Assembly (NCBI RefSeq): GCF_051903065.1
Contig: NZ_CP178438.1
From: Escherichia coli
GTDB taxonomy: Bacteria > Pseudomonadota > Gammaproteobacteria > Enterobacterales > Enterobacteriaceae
Direction: 5' to 3' (one strand)
DNA length: 64,000 bases
Position numbers and translations under genes: made by a program. A model generated the notes under the pieces. That model was not told the DNA's origin. It saw nothing but the letters and a program-made list of their open reading frames with translations, and did no database searches. Of the stretch, positions 3,392-61,743 are shown piece by piece. The first letter of the stretch is position 1, and each line of letters opens with the position of its first letter.

Positions 3392-4527
3392 CAGAACACC
3401 CTTTTACCCTGACGCCAGACGTGGTCGATATGAATATGATTGCCCTTGCGATGCGCCAGCACCAGGTCGGCGCGTTTGCCCTCGCCAATCACCCCGCGAT
3501 CCTGGAGATTAAGCGCCTGCGCTGGATTTTTAGTCACCAGCTTCACCGCCTGCGGCAGCGTAAAGCGGTTGCTCTGGTCATCGGCGACGCGGAACGCCGC
3601 ATCCAGCAGGCTGGCGGGGTAGTAGTCGGAAGAGAGGATATCCAGCAGGCCAAGCTGCGCCAGTTCACTGGCCGCCACGTTGCCGGAGTGCGAACCGCCG
3701 CGCACAATATTCGGCGCGCCCATCAGCACGTTCATGCCATGCTTGCGCGAGGCTTCCGCCGCTTCGAACGTAGTGGGAAATTCGGCGATCACGCTGCCAA
3801 GCTGGTGGGATTCGGCAACATGGGCGTGGGTGGCGTCATCGTGGCTGGCGAGCGCAATGTGTCGCGCGCGGCACATTGCGGCGATGGATTCGCGATTTGG
3901 CTGCGACCAGCGTGCAGCAAGCGCCAGCTGTTCCTCTTCATACTGCTGCATCTGCGCGTCGGTGAGCGAGTATTTGCCCTGATAATATTCGCGATACTTC
4001 TCGCGGTTGGCGAACTGGCGCTGGCCCGGCGAGTGGTCCATCAGCGATACCAGCGTCACCGGCTCGCGCTGCACCAGTTTTTCAAACAGCGGCAGCGTGG
4101 TGTGGTGCGGCAGTTCGCAGCGCAGGTGCAGACGGTGCTCGGCGCGGTTGACGCCGCGTTTCTGCGTCTCTTCGATGGCGTTGATCATCTTCTCCAGATT
4201 CTCCAGCCGATCGCCGCCGTCGCGCACGTCGCCAATCGCCACGGCATCCAGTACGGTGGTGATGCCGCTCGCCACCATCAGCGCATCGTGGCTGCTCATC
4301 GCCGAGTGGGCGGGCCAGTCAACTTTCGGGCGCGGGGTGAAGAATTTATCCAGATTATCGGTATGCAGCTCAATCAGGCCCGGCAGCAGCCAGCCGCCTT
4401 CGCCGTCCATCGCCTCCGGCAGGCGGCTCTGGCTTTCGGCAAAGGCGCGGATTTCGCCGTCCTGCACCTCCAGTGAACCGCTTACCACCTCGTTTTCCAG
4501 CACCAATTTGACGTTATTGATAATCAT
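3391..4527 (-). CDS. phnM: C-P lyase pathway triphosphoribosyl-phosphonate diphosphohydrolase PhnM (amidohydrolase family)
   Basis: 378 aa; operon position. Confidence 0.92.
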
Positions 4528-5204
4528 GAAGAGGCTCCCATTGGGTGCAGGCGGTCGGCAACGTCATTACGTACGGCTTCGTCATGGAAGATGCCGACAA
4601 TGGCTGCGCCGCGGGCTTTGGCTTCGCGGATCAGTTCCACCACCGCGGCGCTGTTTTTGGCGTCCAGCGAGGCGGTAGGTTCGTCGAGCAGCAGAATGGG
4701 GTAGTCGACGATAAAGCCGCGGGCGATGTTGACGCGCTGCTGTTCGCCGCCGGAGAAGGTCGATGGTGCCAGGTGCCACAGGCGTTCCGGCACGTTCAGG
4801 CGGGTGAGCAGACGCGCGGCTTTAGCAGCGCAGGCTTCACGCGGTACGCCGGTATCGAGCAGCGGCTGCATTACTACTTCCAGCGCCGAAATGCGCGGGA
4901 TAACTCGCAGAAACTGGCTCACCCAGCCAACGGTGGTTTTGCGGATTTCCACCACTTTGCGCGCTGGCGCGGTGACCAGATCGACCCATTCGTCACCGTG
5001 TTTGATCTGGATTTGCCCTTCGTCGGGCAGATAGTTGGCGTACAGCGAGCGCAGCAGGGTTGATTTGCCGCTGCCGGAGTGGCCGTGGAGCACCACGCAT
5101 TCGCCCGCGTTGACGGTGAGTGAGGCGCGTTGTAAGACGGGCAGGCGCACGCCGTTTTGCTGATGCAGGATGAAGGTTTTACTGACGTTTTGTACGTTAA
5201 TCAT
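4524..5204 (-). CDS. phnL: C-P lyase ATP-binding subunit PhnL
   Basis: 226 aa from [11 protein letters not shown]; Walker [10 protein letters not shown]. The track ORF (432 aa) is an upstream in-frame extension through a REP element and was trimmed. Confidence 0.9.
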
Positions 5205-14012: not shown

Positions 14013-14414
14013 GTGGATTTCCTCAAAAGTCAGCAGGGCAAAAGCGCCAAAAAACGGCAGATTGCCGAAAAAGGCCGCAATTATACACAAAATCCCTGAG
14101 TTTGTCGGGGGTACTGCTGATTTTAGACGACGATCGTTTTCATTTGAAAGAAAACGCAAAAAGAAAATAATCTTTTTGCCTCCATTTATTATTTAAGATA
14201 AGGTTAATGCTCTACTTGTTCTTTTTTTTTATTCACATGATATTTTTATCTTTCTGACGTTTTAAACGTATCGGAAGATGTTATTTATTCTAATAAAAAA
14301 CAACACTCTAAATATAAAATTATTTCTTGCAGTAATTATAAAAGCCGAAAACAGAACTCAAAAACAATCTGGCTAAATAAAAGTAATAAAATTTGCTTTA
14401 AGGAAGAATTTTCT

Positions 14415-24450: not shown

Positions 24451-25212
24451 TCAGGCGACAGTGCGTTCTCTGTGCTGACTAACATAATGCAGCGGCGTCA
24501 TACCGTAGAAGTCTTTAAAGACAGAAATAAAGTACGACGTACTGTTGTAGCCGCAGGACTGTGATACCTGAGAGATATTTTTACCGTCCATCATTAATTC
24601 ATTTACGGCATAACGCATGCGGCAGGTGGTGATTATTTGGCTATAACTGGTGTTTTCGCTTTTCAGCTTTTTCTTTAACAGACTTGGGCTAAGACATAAA
24701 CAACTGGCTACCATACTAAGATTCCAGTCTTTGTGAATATCGCTTTCAATAATTTGATAAACGCTGTCACTTACACAATTACGTAACATATACATCATTA
24801 ATGAAAGGAATTTTTTACTGTCGAGAAAACGGGATAGCACCGTGAATAATAATGCGCGTGTTCGTTCCTTTTCTGACTCAGTTTCTGCGGGCATCATGCT
24901 GTGTTGCGCGGCAACGCGAAAGACGTCTGGTGTCAGGCATGGCAGGGTGAGGATGGGCGTAGCGCTACGTTGCCATACTGGTATTTGCGAGAGATCTTTA
25001 TTCAGAAACCGGAGGTAATCTTTGATGATGTCGTGACTAATATGAGCAACCAAAGTGTTGTTAAGAGAGGAGACGTCGATAATATTATTTTCACAATTTA
25101 ATAACGCCATATGGTTAGCTTTAAGGCTAATAGGTTCTTTCCCATTCACCCTTATCCAGACATCTTTTTCAGTCAATAAAACAATACAAGGTTGGTCGCT
25201 GCAAATCCTCAT
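24451..25212 (-). CDS. adiY: AraC-family transcriptional regulator AdiY
   Basis: 253 aa; C-terminal AraC-type HTH; AT-rich gene. Confidence 0.9.
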   Translation of the reverse strand: MRICSDQPCIVLLTEKDVWIRVNGKEPISLKANHMALLNCENNIIDVSSLNNTLVAHISHDIIKDYLRFLNKDLSQIPVWQRSATPILTLPCLTPDVFRVAAQHSMMPAETESEKERTRALLFTVLSRFLDSKKFLSLMMYMLRNCVSDSVYQIIESDIHKDWNLSMVASCLCLSPSLLKKKLKSENTSYSQIITTCRMRYAVNELMMDGKNISQVSQSCGYNSTSYFISVFKDFYGMTPLHYVSQHRERTVA

Positions 25213-39867: not shown

Positions 39868-40164
39868 ATGGAAGGTAAAAACAAGTTCAATACTTATGTT
39901 GTTTCTTTTGATTATCCATCATCTTATTCCTCAGTGTTCTTAAGGTTAAGATCATTGATGTATGATATGAATTTCTCCTCTATCGTGGCTGATGAATATG
40001 GGATACCACGACAATTGAATGAAAACTCCTTCGCAATAACGACATCATTAGCCGCAAGTGAAATCGAAGATTTAATCAGGCTTAAATGCTTAGACTTACC
40101 GGATATTGATTTTGACCTCAACATTATGAAAGTTGATGACTATTTCCGTCAGTTTTACAAATAG
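39868..40164 (+). CDS. ghoS: Type V antitoxin GhoS (endoribonuclease specific for ghoT mRNA)
   Basis: 98 aa, MEGKNKFNTYVVSFDYPSSYSSVFLRL; immediately upstream of ghoT. Confidence 0.88.
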   Translation: MEGKNKFNTYVVSFDYPSSYSSVFLRLRSLMYDMNFSSIVADEYGIPRQLNENSFAITTSLAASEIEDLIRLKCLDLPDIDFDLNIMKVDDYFRQFYK

Positions 40165-40191
40165 CCAGGAAGGATAAGAAGAACATAAAAA

Positions 40192-40365
40192 ATGGCACTA
40201 TTCTCTAAAATATTAATTTTTTATGTGATTGGTGTGAACATATCCTTTGTCATTATCTGGTTTATCTCACATGAGAAAACACATATTCGTTTACTTAGTG
40301 CATTCCTGGTAGGAATAACCTGGCCAATGAGTCTGCCTGTGGCATTACTTTTTTCTCTCTTTTAG
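40192..40365 (+). CDS. ghoT: Small membrane-lytic toxin GhoT (57 aa)
   Basis: MALFSKILIFYVIGVNISFVIIWFISHEKTHIRLLSAFLVGITWPMSLPVALLFSLF; two hydrophobic helices; below the ORF-track cutoff. Confidence 0.85.
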   Translation: MALFSKILIFYVIGVNISFVIIWFISHEKTHIRLLSAFLVGITWPMSLPVALLFSLF

Positions 40366-47680: not shown

Positions 47681-49219
47681 TTATTCTGAAGCGAGAAATT
47701 TGTCGAGATAAGGTACAACATAAGGAACAGAAGTCTGGAATATACCATTTTCAATCCAGTAAAGGGTGTTTGCCCCTGGGCGTAAATTAAAGGCGGTGAG
47801 ATATGCATCAGCCGCTTCCCGGTTCATCCCCTTCATTTCATAAACCTTGCCAAGCAATACATAATTTAGCCAGGACATTTCAAGATCAATGCCAGTATTT
47901 ATCGCCTGGTAAGACTCATCTGTTTTACCTTTTACCAGAGCACTGATCGCTTTTATTTGATATATAATGGACAGGTTATTCAATTCCGGTAGTGTAACAA
48001 TGTTATCTATTTCTGTGTTCAGTGCTGCTAATTGTTTTTCATCTAAAGGATGTTGAGAATAGCGCACGATATCAACTAATGCTTTTTCTGCTCTCGCGTA
48101 GGTAAATTCTGGGGATGATTGAACAATCTCACCTAATAATTCACTGGCACGGTTCAATGATTTATCATCGCCATGCAGTAAATAATCATGTGCCTGATAA
48201 AAATTAGTTAATAACGCACCACGATGAGGCAAAATTTGCTGGAGCGTCTCCTGCATTCGTTGTGGCCACGGTTGGTTTAACGCTTTTGATAAACTCTCCA
48301 GTAAATCATTTTGAATCGCCAGCTGATTACCGTTAGTGATGACATAACGTTTATCCAGCATGGTTGAACCATCTGCATTGTCTACCAATTTTATCGACAT
48401 AAAGCATTGTTGAGCACGGTATTGGCGCTGATTAACAAACGCAATAGATAATGTTTTACCGGAACTGCTCGGTTCATCAATGTTGTAGTTGATTTTGTCA
48501 TGCACCATAAAGGTGGAGAAGGTGTTAAGTGATGTCGCCACCAAATCACCCACGCCTATCGCGTAAGAGAGCTGATACGGGGAACTCCAGCTGTTACAAC
48601 TTTTATTTACCATATTAATGTCAATATCGCGTGGATTGAGCAAAATACGCGATTTGCTCATCGGAAGACGTGTATCAAGACTTGAAAACGCTACCAGTGC
48701 TACACAGATACCTAAGGACAACAGGAAAAAAAACCATACCCAAAAGGTAGTGAATCGTTTGCTTTTAACTGGGGATTGTTCAGGTGGCGTTGCAGTGTTT
48801 TGAATGTTAAGACTGTGGGAGGGAGAATCTGTGGCAGGAACCGCCTCTGGTATAGGGGGAGGCGAAGATAGCATTATTTCCTCTCCCTCTTCTTCGCTGT
48901 ACCAGATAACCGGCACCATTAATTTATAGCCGCGCTTTGGTACAGTAGCGATATAGACAGGACTATCTTCATCATTATCTTTTAATGACTTACGTAGTTC
49001 TGAGATACTCTGCGTCACAACGTGATTGGTGACAATACTTCTCTTCCAGACATTATCGATAAGTTCATCCCTGCTAAGTACTTCGCCACTGTGTTGAGCA
49101 AAGAAAACCAGAAGGTCGATTAATCTCGGCTCAAGGGTAAGTTGACGCCCATTGCGGCTAATTTGGTTTATGGACGGAGTAACAAGCCATTCGCCAACGC
49201 GAACTACAGGTTGTTGCAT
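47681..49219 (-). CDS. cadC: ToxR-like membrane-bound transcriptional activator CadC
   Basis: 512 aa; N-terminal winged HTH, one membrane helix (FWVWFFFLLSLGICVALVAF), periplasmic sensor domain. Confidence 0.92.
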   Translation of the reverse strand: MQQPVVRVGEWLVTPSINQISRNGRQLTLEPRLIDLLVFFAQHSGEVLSRDELIDNVWKRSIVTNHVVTQSISELRKSLKDNDEDSPVYIATVPKRGYKLMVPVIWYSEEEGEEIMLSSPPPIPEAVPATDSPSHSLNIQNTATPPEQSPVKSKRFTTFWVWFFFLLSLGICVALVAFSSLDTRLPMSKSRILLNPRDIDINMVNKSCNSWSSPYQLSYAIGVGDLVATSLNTFSTFMVHDKINYNIDEPSSSGKTLSIAFVNQRQYRAQQCFMSIKLVDNADGSTMLDKRYVITNGNQLAIQNDLLESLSKALNQPWPQRMQETLQQILPHRGALLTNFYQAHDYLLHGDDKSLNRASELLGEIVQSSPEFTYARAEKALVDIVRYSQHPLDEKQLAALNTEIDNIVTLPELNNLSIIYQIKAISALVKGKTDESYQAINTGIDLEMSWLNYVLLGKVYEMKGMNREAADAYLTAFNLRPGANTLYWIENGIFQTSVPYVVPYLDKFLASE

Positions 49220-49828: not shown

Positions 49829-49835
49829 ATGAATT

Positions 49836-49911
49836 TGGTGCCCGGACTCGGAATCGAACCAAGGACACGGGGATTTTCAATCCCCTGCTCTACCGACTGA
49901 GCTATCCGGGC
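49836..49911 (-). tRNA. pheU: tRNA-Phe (anticodon GAA)
   Basis: Minus strand reads GCCCGGATAGCTCAGTCGGTAGAGCAGGGGATTGAAAATCCCCGTGTCCTTGGTTCGATTCCGAGTCCGGGCACCA, 76 nt with encoded CCA. Confidence 0.97.
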
Positions 49912-60447: not shown

Positions 60448-60471
60448 TGTGATGGTGACAAACGTATAATT

Positions 60472-60571
<100 letters not shown>

Positions 60572-60639
60572 TGACCAACGATCACGTTATCAGTCATTTC
60601 AGGCTGGATGGCTCCAGCCTCGCATTAGCAAAGATGAGA

Positions 60640-61509
60640 TTATTTCGCCTGTGGTGCAGTTTTGCTGGTGGATTGAACACGTAAGTGATGCAGCGCGCGT
60701 AAGCATTGATCCTGGGTTAGCGGTTGGGCGTTATTCGCCGCTACGGTGCGAACATAGACCTGACATGGCACACCCGCGAGTTTTTTCAGTCGTGGGCTGA
60801 AATCAAGCATTCGGCGAGTGATCGCCTCTATTTCTTTACCCGGCGTTGCTTCACGCGTTTTCACCACTGCGCCGCTAAATTGTTCTTTGCCACTTTCATC
60901 TTTAAAGCGGTAAAGCACCGCCAGATAATGGTCGAACAAGTTATGTTTCCATTCCGGTTGGGAATAGGTGTCATATTCCAGATTGCCATTTTCCTGGCAG
61001 TCAACATCATATAACGGCAGGAAATCTAATAGTGAGGTAATACGTAATGCCAGTTCACGCATTTCCGCATTATTAATTGCATGAATGATTGCTCGCGCCA
61101 GCATTTCAATCTGCAACTCATTGACGACTAACTCACATTTGCTACCGTCATGTAGCGTTAATACGAAGGTAAGATTTTCGCCTTGATTATCGGTAAGTTC
61201 CAGCGTGTTAACCCGACGATTAATATCGGCATTTTTAAGCTCATCAACCAGAATTTCTGGGATGTTTTCTGCCATTTTCTTAATGACTTTATCGCGAGCT
61301 TGCTCATACTGAAGGCGTGCAGCAGCATCCAGTTTATGCTTTTGATGCAGACGACTTTCCAGCGCAATCAGCAGGTCGCGCAGTTCCATGACAGACATAA
61401 AGAACAACGATTCTTTATTACGGAGTTCTTTAATTTTCAGCGCCAGTGCAATGAAATTATTACTCTTGCGAATAACACCGGTATTAACACCCTTGATGCT
61501 TATGGCCAT
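60640..61509 (-). CDS. yjeJ: Protein of unknown function YjeJ
   Basis: 289 aa; gene and its upstream region are visibly AT-rich relative to neighbours (by eye). Confidence 0.8.
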   Translation of the reverse strand: MAISIKGVNTGVIRKSNNFIALALKIKELRNKESLFFMSVMELRDLLIALESRLHQKHKLDAAARLQYEQARDKVIKKMAENIPEILVDELKNADINRRVNTLELTDNQGENLTFVLTLHDGSKCELVVNELQIEMLARAIIHAINNAEMRELALRITSLLDFLPLYDVDCQENGNLEYDTYSQPEWKHNLFDHYLAVLYRFKDESGKEQFSGAVVKTREATPGKEIEAITRRMLDFSPRLKKLAGVPCQVYVRTVAANNAQPLTQDQCLRALHHLRVQSTSKTAPQAK

Positions 61510-61743
61510 GTAGGTTCTCCCTAACCATTTCTCAATTAAATAATTAATTTTAATTTATAAGCCAGATAAATGGGCTTGGTAGTAATAGTTGTTAAAATAA
61601 CATAAATAGCCGTACTCACTCTATATAAACAGAAAAGAAAGGTTAATTATTGGTGTTGGTTATATAAAGAGTAACAACAGCAATGTATATGAATAATTAA
61701 AGGTTATGCAACGGGCAAAGATTAAACTTCCCTGTTTAATCAG

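Follow-up and report, generated by a model that had tools for sequence, protein, structure and literature searches.

yjeJ of Escherichia coli: an old AT-rich core gene with divergent relatives in peptide-export cassettes

Is the AT-rich gene yjeJ of Escherichia coli a piece of foreign DNA, and what might its product do? The gene lies in a 64,000-nucleotide stretch of an E. coli chromosome (RefSeq assembly GCF_051903065.1, contig NZ_CP178438.1; the whole stretch is referred to below as the window), in which the gene order is phn-proP-bas-adi-mel-dcuB-cad-pheU-dsbD-aspA-groSL-yjeI-yjeJ-epmB-efp-ecnAB. To our knowledge, yjeJ (b4145 in E. coli K-12) is a y-gene for which there is no function, phenotype, or informative homology. 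An earlier note on the window had pointed to the AT-richness of yjeJ and of the roughly 230 bp upstream, and had taken it as a hallmark of horizontally acquired, H-NS-silenced DNA. We propose a different reading, to which we assign a probability of roughly 40%: yjeJ would be an old core gene, a stand-alone relative of the hypervariable fourth gene of a peptide-export cassette, and its product an immunity-like partner of exported peptides. The two parts of the locus are the following.

60640-61509, minus strand: yjeJ coding sequence, an ATG-started open reading frame (ORF) of 289 amino acids that is named yjeJ in the RefSeq annotation.
61510-61743, minus strand: epmB-yjeJ spacer, 234 bp and 29.1% G+C (GC), distinguished by its composition, a peak of RpoD binding, and blocks conserved across genera.

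The AT-richness described in the earlier note was borne out by calculation. Against a window GC content of 51.4%, the yjeJ coding sequence has 44.8% (GC at the first, second, and third codon positions, 0.579, 0.324, and 0.441 [GC1, GC2, and GC3]), the third lowest value when the 51 annotated window genes of 300 nt or more are ranked; only adiY (41.5%) and cadC (41.8%) are lower. Within the same set of genes its GC2 is the lowest and its GC3 the second lowest, with composition z-scores of about -1.7 to -1.85. Third codon positions account for roughly two thirds of the GC deficit and amino acid composition for the remaining third, and GC3 is uniformly low along the gene (0.43, 0.43, and 0.48 in successive thirds). 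The spacer has the lowest GC content of the 31 window spacers that are 100 bp or longer (mean, 44.8%; standard deviation, 10) and falls within the lowest 0.3% of all 234-bp windows; three further promoter spacers in the window have 30 to 31% GC, and thus the yjeJ spacer stands at the extreme of the window without being unique as a promoter region. The compositional anomaly is therefore real, moderate in the coding sequence and strong in the spacer. Other low-GC patches of the window are ghoS/ghoT (39868-40365, 34%), cadC (47681-49219), adiY (24451-25212), and the yjdM-crfC spacer (14013-14414, 31%).

Codon usage, which the earlier note had also proposed to examine, revealed no anomaly. With a local set of highly expressed genes as the reference, the codon adaptation index (CAI) of yjeJ was 0.487, compared with 0.471 for epmB and 0.485 for yjeI. 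Furthermore, the GC content of yjeJ was below that of epmB in 32 of 33 genomes, by a mean of 7.3 points. Therefore, low GC is a long-standing trait of the family.

The distribution of yjeJ is that of a resident gene. It is present as a single copy in 5425 of 5426 complete E. coli genomes, with a median identity of about 99%, and its diversity within the species is no greater than that of epmB (median identity, about 98%). When one genome per species was scanned, about 43 yjeJ loci came up in 12 named genera (Escherichia, Citrobacter, Pseudocitrobacter, Kluyvera, Salmonella, Superficieibacter, Trabulsiella, Intestinirhabdus, Yokenella, Kosakonia, Phytobacter, and Pluralibacter), and Atlantibacter was found separately. 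The order efp(-) epmB(+) yjeJ(+) yjeI(-) groL(-) groS(-) was preserved at every informative locus. Identity to the E. coli YjeJ is 93 to 97% in other Escherichia species, 66 to 75% in most Citrobacter, 57 to 62% in Salmonella and Kluyvera, and 40 to 47% in Kosakonia, Phytobacter, Pluralibacter, and a divergent Citrobacter group, while the flanking proteins stay 86 to 99% identical over the same genera. Pairwise divergence of YjeJ correlates with that of EpmB (Pearson r = 0.74), and the nearest neighbors agree at shallow depth, which is a pattern of vertical descent of YjeJ at 3 to 5 times the EpmB rate. Within Escherichia the ratio of nonsynonymous to synonymous divergence (dN/dS) of yjeJ is 0.03 to 0.06, and YjeJ is therefore under purifying selection. 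In comparisons with other Escherichia species dS is about twice that of the neighboring genes, a value that we do not use as support since diversity within E. coli does not exceed that of epmB. Xenologous replacement within Citrobacter (NCU1 and Awk4, about 41% identity) was considered and ruled out, because EpmB is also 8 to 10% diverged in these strains and the nearest neighbors agree.

The borders of yjeJ carry no integrase, tRNA, or insertion sequence (IS), nor are there integrase or IS ORFs; the downstream spacer holds repetitive extragenic palindromic (REP) units only. Of the properties by which genomic islands are recognized, yjeJ has the atypical composition, whereas patchy presence, syntenic absence or phylogenetic incongruence, and mobility signatures at the borders were not found. 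yjeJ is thus no recent island but a core gene of E. coli that is old and has descended vertically. Broad vertical conservation is the outcome that the earlier note itself had named as contradicting its proposal. What survives of horizontal acquisition is the low-GC, mobile background of the family, seen in the cassettes and Serratia plasmids described below; a recent transfer is contradicted by the near-universal presence, the conserved synteny, the correlation with EpmB, and the lack of mobility genes at the borders.

Some loci in these comparisons have features of their own. In Salmonella (locus L027, 6001-6861; locus L043, 6225-6833; and hits H35 and H37) yjeJ looks decayed: in S. diarizonae the start codon is replaced by ATA and codon 97 is an in-frame stop, the match in S. 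arizonae is truncated and runs from about residue 75 on, and S. enterica records have two hypothetical proteins annotated beneath the yjeJ match. Insertions of 2 to 3 kb occupy the epmB-yjeJ, yjeJ-yjeI, or yjeI-groL junction in Citrobacter youngae, Kluyvera sichuanensis, Kosakonia, and Phytobacter (locus L013, 4031-6000 and 7306-10435; locus L029, 6804-9415; and loci L037, L039, and L048, 6856-8992). Their arrangement suggests that the epmB-groL interval is a recurrent integration spot.

The proposal of H-NS silencing was not supported. In a genomic survey by systematic evolution of ligands by exponential enrichment (SELEX), the yjeJ-epmB spacer has a "constitutive" promoter bound in vitro by the RpoD holoenzyme alone and no entry in the column for H-NS; two other spacers of the window, cadB-cadC and adiA-melR, are marked as H-NS bound (PMC3946193). 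Furthermore, YjeJ was quantified in the proteome of K-12 grown in LB medium (PMC9508795), and the gene has been cited as Nac regulated (PMC7417836). Thus, neither the in vitro SELEX data nor the LB proteome lends support to silencing of yjeJ by H-NS. The gene does resemble H-NS-silenced xenogeneic genes, such as those of the cadC/cadBA and adiY regions, in combining an AT-rich coding sequence with a very AT-rich upstream spacer of similar extent, but in contrast to them it is a universal, syntenic core gene.

The epmB-yjeJ spacer carries the yjeJ promoter and 5' leader, in which three elements can be placed.

61618-61646, minus strand: sigma-70 "constitutive" promoter TTAACC-17-TAGAGT, with the sequence taken from PMC3946193 and placed in the window.
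61591-61605, minus strand: conserved block TTATGTTATTTTAAC, about 85 to 100 nt 5' of the yjeJ start codon, recognized by cross-genus conservation.
61513-61526, minus strand: ribosome-binding block GGTTAGGGAGAACC, nearly invariant in 14 genera.

In the cross-genus comparison of spacers, TTAACC-17-TAGAGT was kept within Escherichia only, and it fell below the cutoff in a consensus promoter scan of the window. Block TTATGTTATTTTAAC was kept in Escherichia, Citrobacter, Kluyvera, Trabulsiella, Yokenella, and Phytobacter, and the spacer around it was not. Because TTATGTTATTTTAAC and GGTTAGGGAGAACC are conserved across genera and the rest is not, the spacer is more than anonymous AT-rich DNA. From its sequence, TTATGTTATTTTAAC is possibly an extended -10 element (TGnTATTTT), and the conserved element TGTTATTTT could be an alternative candidate for the yjeJ promoter. 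In GGTTAGGGAGAACC, complementary GGTT and AACC flank the Shine-Dalgarno sequence GGGAG, and the small palindrome that they form might have a regulatory meaning. A separate observation from a genomic SELEX study of minor sigma factors is an intragenic holoenzyme-binding peak in yjeJ at about K-12 coordinate 4371850, given in the section on the heat shock sigma factor (PMC5493296).

A clue to what YjeJ might do comes from its divergent relatives. An exhaustive HMMER search returned only 97 YjeJ cluster representatives, about 30 of them full length, with identity down to 24%. They occur in three contexts: orphan copies between epmB and yjeI, as in E. coli; copies linked to a gene for an ATP-binding cassette (ABC) exporter with a C39 peptidase domain; and copies on Serratia plasmids. 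[quoted passage not shown] In nine distinct clusters, defined at 50% identity and drawn from Klebsiella pneumoniae (two strains), Entomohabitans, Budvicia, GCA_036409475.1, and five metagenomic contigs, yjeJ starts 3 to 30 bp after the exporter gene; fimbrial genes lie upstream of the peptide genes in six of the loci. The cassette adjoins yjeI-groL, the site of the E. coli gene, in Klebsiella, Entomohabitans, and contig ERR3449135, and its place in K. pneumoniae and Entomohabitans, between epmB and yjeI, is precisely the one that yjeJ alone takes in E. coli. In Budvicia and GCA_036409475.1 the cassette is located away from the groEL locus, and the linkage of PCAT and YjeJ is therefore independent of locus. 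In Klebsiella and Entomohabitans the cassette forms a low-GC island (MFP, 0.38; PCAT, 0.43 to 0.46; YjeJ, 0.41 to 0.47) beside yjeI and groL at 0.55 to 0.59. It appears to be a chromosomal fixture in Klebsiella. We found no report of a linkage of YjeJ to cassettes of this kind in the searchable literature, nor any mention there of PF15922, the Pfam family to which YjeJ belongs, or of YjeJ in a microcin context.

The peptides encoded in the cassettes are about 100 to 120 amino acids long, with Gly-rich cores and double-glycine leaders of the form MKxLxVxEMxxISGG/GA (for example, MKQLTVFEMEAISGG followed by YSWDFSS). Their matches to the Bacteriocin_IIc, MccV, and glycine-zipper models were all below threshold; the exporter and the MFP have their matches in bacteriocin and type I secretion families. 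When the cassettes are compared in pairs, PCAT has a median identity of 78%, MFP one of 71%, and the peptide one of 46%; the adhesin of the fimbriae has 31% and YjeJ 30%. This ranking, high for PCAT and MFP and low for the peptide and YjeJ, matches the pattern of a conserved exporter with a variable payload and partner that is known from microcin systems (PMC9746304), and by analogy such a rate pattern would be typical of toxin/immunity pairs. No small membrane-protein ORF fit to be a classical immunity gene was found in the Klebsiella and Budvicia cassettes. Two observations on the cassettes stand apart from these comparisons: the peptides share the C-terminal motif (D/N)G(T/S/K)F(V/R)xW, and a conserved low-GC block that fuses a chaperone-usher fimbrial operon to the peptide, MFP, PCAT, and YjeJ genes can be followed at loci L052 (449-6864), L057 (1-6849), L058 (1-8606), L061 (1-7849), L062, and L064. 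The K. pneumoniae peptides are encoded at 1692-2057 and 2124-2492 of L052.

The cassettes of the relatives thus resemble class II microcin clusters, such as that of microcin V with its precursor, immunity protein, MFP CvaA, and PCAT CvaB, in having Gly-rich peptides with double-glycine leaders, a C39 ABC exporter, and an HlyD-type MFP, and in the conservation of the exporters and variability of the peptides. They differ in that a soluble YjeJ of 274 to 294 amino acids follows the PCAT, fimbrial genes are present in six loci, and no small membrane immunity gene was found; E. coli differs further in holding yjeJ only. As with microcin and bacteriocin immunity genes and orphan immunity genes, YjeJ is the most variable component of its system and has stand-alone copies in genomes without toxin genes. 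In GCA_036409475.1 there are two yjeJ genes, one linked to the cassette and one of the E. coli type beside yjeI, with only a gene for a GerE-family regulator between them, an arrangement that resembles orphan-immunity arrays.

The third context is more distant. The YjeJ homologues of Serratia have 24 to 26% identity to the E. coli protein and are encoded on plasmids of 18 to 57 kb, of which five of six were typed as MOBP mobilizable; their neighbors are backbone genes, which encode a SprT-like protein, a phosphoribosyltransferase, a tyrosine recombinase, H-NS/Hha, and topoisomerase IA. On these plasmids a gene for a conserved 101-amino-acid, Trp/Phe-rich protein lies upstream of the yjeJ homologue, about 115 bp away and in the same orientation (locus L049, 6567-6872; locus L050, 6563-6868; and locus L056, 5560-5865). 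This protein has no family match and is not a double-glycine peptide.

YjeJ matches the Pfam family PF15922 (YjeJ-like) with an E value of 4e-174 and 578 bits against a gathering cutoff of 27, over residues 1 to 283 of 283, and all 23 diverse YjeJ homologues match it as well. PF15922 is an uncharacterized family with no assigned function, and scans of YjeJ and 22 homologues with NCBIfam, PADLOC, and PHROGs gave nothing meaningful. The remark in the earlier note that the protein has no recognizable motif was therefore a fair one, as its sole family match is to an uncharacterized family. The structure prediction suggested there gave a confident AlphaFold2 model, built from an alignment of the 23 diverse homologues (predicted local distance difference test score, 93; predicted template-modeling score, 0.88), with three beta-sheet-plus-helix modules. 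YjeJ is predicted to be a soluble protein: the model is globular and has no transmembrane (TM) helix, and the sequence lacks a TM-like segment, with a maximum Kyte-Doolittle value over 19 residues of 1.23 (range in the family, 0.8 to 1.8). Alignment of the three modules with hhalign gave no signal of an internal repeat. Foldseek found no match at E values of 0.001 or less in the PDB and BFVD, and a profile search of PDB sequences with the YjeJ family also found none.

These observations can be accommodated as follows. The characteristic home of the YjeJ family would be a low-GC accessory fimbria/peptide-export cassette with YjeJ as the terminal gene, and the AT-richness of YjeJ would be a family trait from ancient membership of a mobile low-GC gene pool rather than the scar of a recent transfer. 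E. coli and its close relatives have a stand-alone, paralogous yjeJ lineage (clade A) without a cassette, and in E. coli a weak promoter within the AT-rich spacer, dependent on RpoD, drives its transcription. In the cytoplasm, YjeJ would be the cognate partner of the peptides that are exported, most likely a self-protection (immunity-like) factor, and E. coli yjeJ would persist as an orphan that protects against the peptides of neighbors such as Klebsiella. A protective role would explain the universal stand-alone copies without a cassette and the two nearby copies in one genome. The immunity-like role and the logic of orphan protection are what we infer from the observed composition, conservation, synteny, cassette linkage, rate pattern, and confident fold. 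The further claim that YjeJ represents a new class of large soluble immunity factors for glycine-zipper peptides, and E. coli yjeJ an orphan immunity gene, is doubtful.

Several results weigh against YjeJ as an immunity-like factor. Class II microcins act from the periplasm, whereas YjeJ would be cytoplasmic. Any antibacterial activity of the cassette peptides is a prediction from their microcin-like sequences. A distance tree places the orphan-type and the cassette-type YjeJ proteins in clades of their own, with about 30% identity between the two, and function may have diverged between them. A tblastn search of the window and all orphan-type loci for relics of the peptide, MFP, PCAT, GerE, winged helix-turn-helix, and fimbrial genes found none, and the loss of a cassette in the E. 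coli lineage can therefore only be inferred. No peptide or exporter genes are near the homologues on the Serratia plasmids, and the best fold match of the YjeJ model is to a nucleic acid-binding fold. Validated class II microcin immunity proteins have 51 to 216 amino acids and TM helices and adjoin the peptide gene (PMC9746304, PMC12219008). YjeJ family members have none of these three properties, with 274 to 294 amino acids, no TM segment, and a position at the far end of the operon past the MFP and PCAT genes. Relatives do belong to precursor/PCAT/MFP clusters in nine cases; E. coli yjeJ stands alone. Published pipelines for microcins limit immunity candidates to 250 amino acids or fewer, or to 216 or fewer with TM helices, beside the peptide gene (PMC9746304, PMC12219008), and therefore YjeJ would have been missed by them.

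Other explanations account for parts of the evidence. It is very unlikely that yjeJ and its spacer are a recently acquired foreign islet kept silent by H-NS. The low GC of the coding sequence, the very low GC of the spacer, a stretch of about 900 bp below 45% GC that is comparable to the H-NS targets cadC and adiY in the window, and the family members on plasmids and in low-GC cassettes would fit such an islet. However, a gene that is universal in E. coli, syntenic across genera, and congruent in phylogeny with EpmB, with no integrase, tRNA, or IS at its borders and with ordinary codon adaptation, would not be expected to be one, nor would a spacer with upstream blocks conserved across genera and, in SELEX, an RpoD-alone promoter but no H-NS site, or a protein present in the LB proteome. 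The recent-acquisition part of this explanation is already refuted. Rather unlikely, though the least improbable of these alternatives, is that yjeJ is an ordinary, weakly expressed, fast-evolving resident gene with a low GC content that results from its amino acids and relaxed synonymous selection, and that its cassette neighbors in relatives are insertions that a permissive site took up by coincidence. The protein is rich in Leu, Lys, Asn, Ile, and Glu, its gene has the lowest GC2 in the window, with about a third of the GC deficit nonsynonymous, and its CAI is like that of its neighbors. In some genera (Kluyvera and Pluralibacter) the GC3 of yjeJ equals or exceeds that of epmB, and the epmB-yjeI interval accepts unrelated insertions, as the 2- to 3-kb insertions in C. 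youngae, K. sichuanensis, Kosakonia, and Phytobacter exemplify. Yet chance insertion leaves unexplained why PCAT and YjeJ genes are adjacent, within 3 to 30 bp, in nine clusters and even off the groEL locus (Budvicia and GCA_036409475.1), and the window median of GC3, 0.605, is far above the 0.44 of yjeJ.

Two further alternatives concern the biochemical role of the protein. YjeJ might be a single-stranded nucleic acid binder of the PUR/Whirly (PC4-like) type, acting as a regulator or a DNA- or RNA-handling factor and inherited from plasmids. The fold of the model brings to mind PUR/Whirly/PC4-like proteins (Pur-alpha [3k44], StWhy2, and MRP1/2), but the Foldseek comparison is not significant and there is no sequence relationship: none of the 23 family members matched the PUR, Whirly, or PC4 Pfam models at E values of 10 or less. 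In addition, the YjeJ modules are three-stranded rather than four-stranded, there are three of them per chain with no internal repeat, and most members of the family are acidic (pI 5 to 6), which argues weakly against nucleic acid binding. As far as the model can tell, "PUR/Whirly-like fold" would denote a resemblance and no membership, and we consider such a role unlikely. Slightly less likely still is a role of YjeJ in the cytoplasm as a regulator of aggregation-prone glycine-zipper prepeptides or a chaperone for their export, with the E. coli copy redeployed to another client. A protein that did nothing but chaperone export would have no client in the cassette-less E. coli, Citrobacter, and Kluyvera, and yet purifying selection acts there.

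By itself, the compositional oddity of yjeJ is minor, and the label "H-NS-silenced foreign DNA" would mislead. Of more consequence is that the context of the relatives ties the YjeJ family to secretion cassettes for double-glycine peptides, which provides a first testable role for yjeJ. If YjeJ does protect against or handle such peptides, the definition of microcin immunity would extend past small membrane proteins, and the failure of current pipelines to find an immunity gene in some clusters would be explained. It would also suggest that E. coli has a standing defense against Klebsiella-type peptides in the gut.

Downstream of yjeJ, one structure is a candidate for the end of the transcript.

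60601-60620, minus strand: 8-bp GC-rich hairpin AGGCTGGA-GCCA-TCCAGCCT, 20 nt past the yjeJ stop codon, recognized from the sequence and by RNAfold.

RNAfold gave a minimum free energy of -16.8 kcal/mol for a 50-nt stretch with this hairpin, and the AGGCTGGA/TCCAGCCT stem is present in the predicted structure. The hairpin has no T-run, and it was not called in a terminator scan of the window.

The spacer between the convergent yjeI and yjeJ genes (60448-60639) contains two inverted REP units in an arrangement like that of a bacterial interspersed mosaic element (BIME), with arms at 60487-60501, 60536-60550, and 60557-60570; they match the Rfam family naRNA4 below threshold. Because of these REP units a 1.5-kb query from the locus matches about 25 places per E. 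coli genome. On the other side of yjeJ, a BIME of about 160 bp, with two REPs, lies right after the epmB stop codon in K-12 MG1655 and in strain E69, whose divergent Escherichia genome was deposited under the name E. coli; the BIME is bordered by duplicated CAGCAGTAACTGATTAAACAGGGAAGTT (window 61700-61743 compared with 4236-4629 of the K-12 locus). This element is absent from the window strain and from E. albertii, and for that reason the spacer is 234 bp in the window and 394 bp in K-12.

Elsewhere in the window, a tRNA gene marks the site of an island in other strains.

49836-49911, minus strand: tRNA-Phe gene pheU, island site (region 49830-49911).

In genomes 23CRST027 and 23CRST031, the two that match the window at 100% identity on either side, a 38.7-kb island that is absent from the window occupies pheU. 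The island encodes an integrase, tia, a phosphoethanolamine (pEtN) transferase, an autotransporter, YeeU/CbtA, and ParDE and contains many IS fragments; its junction has a 29-bp overlap, consistent with an att repeat.

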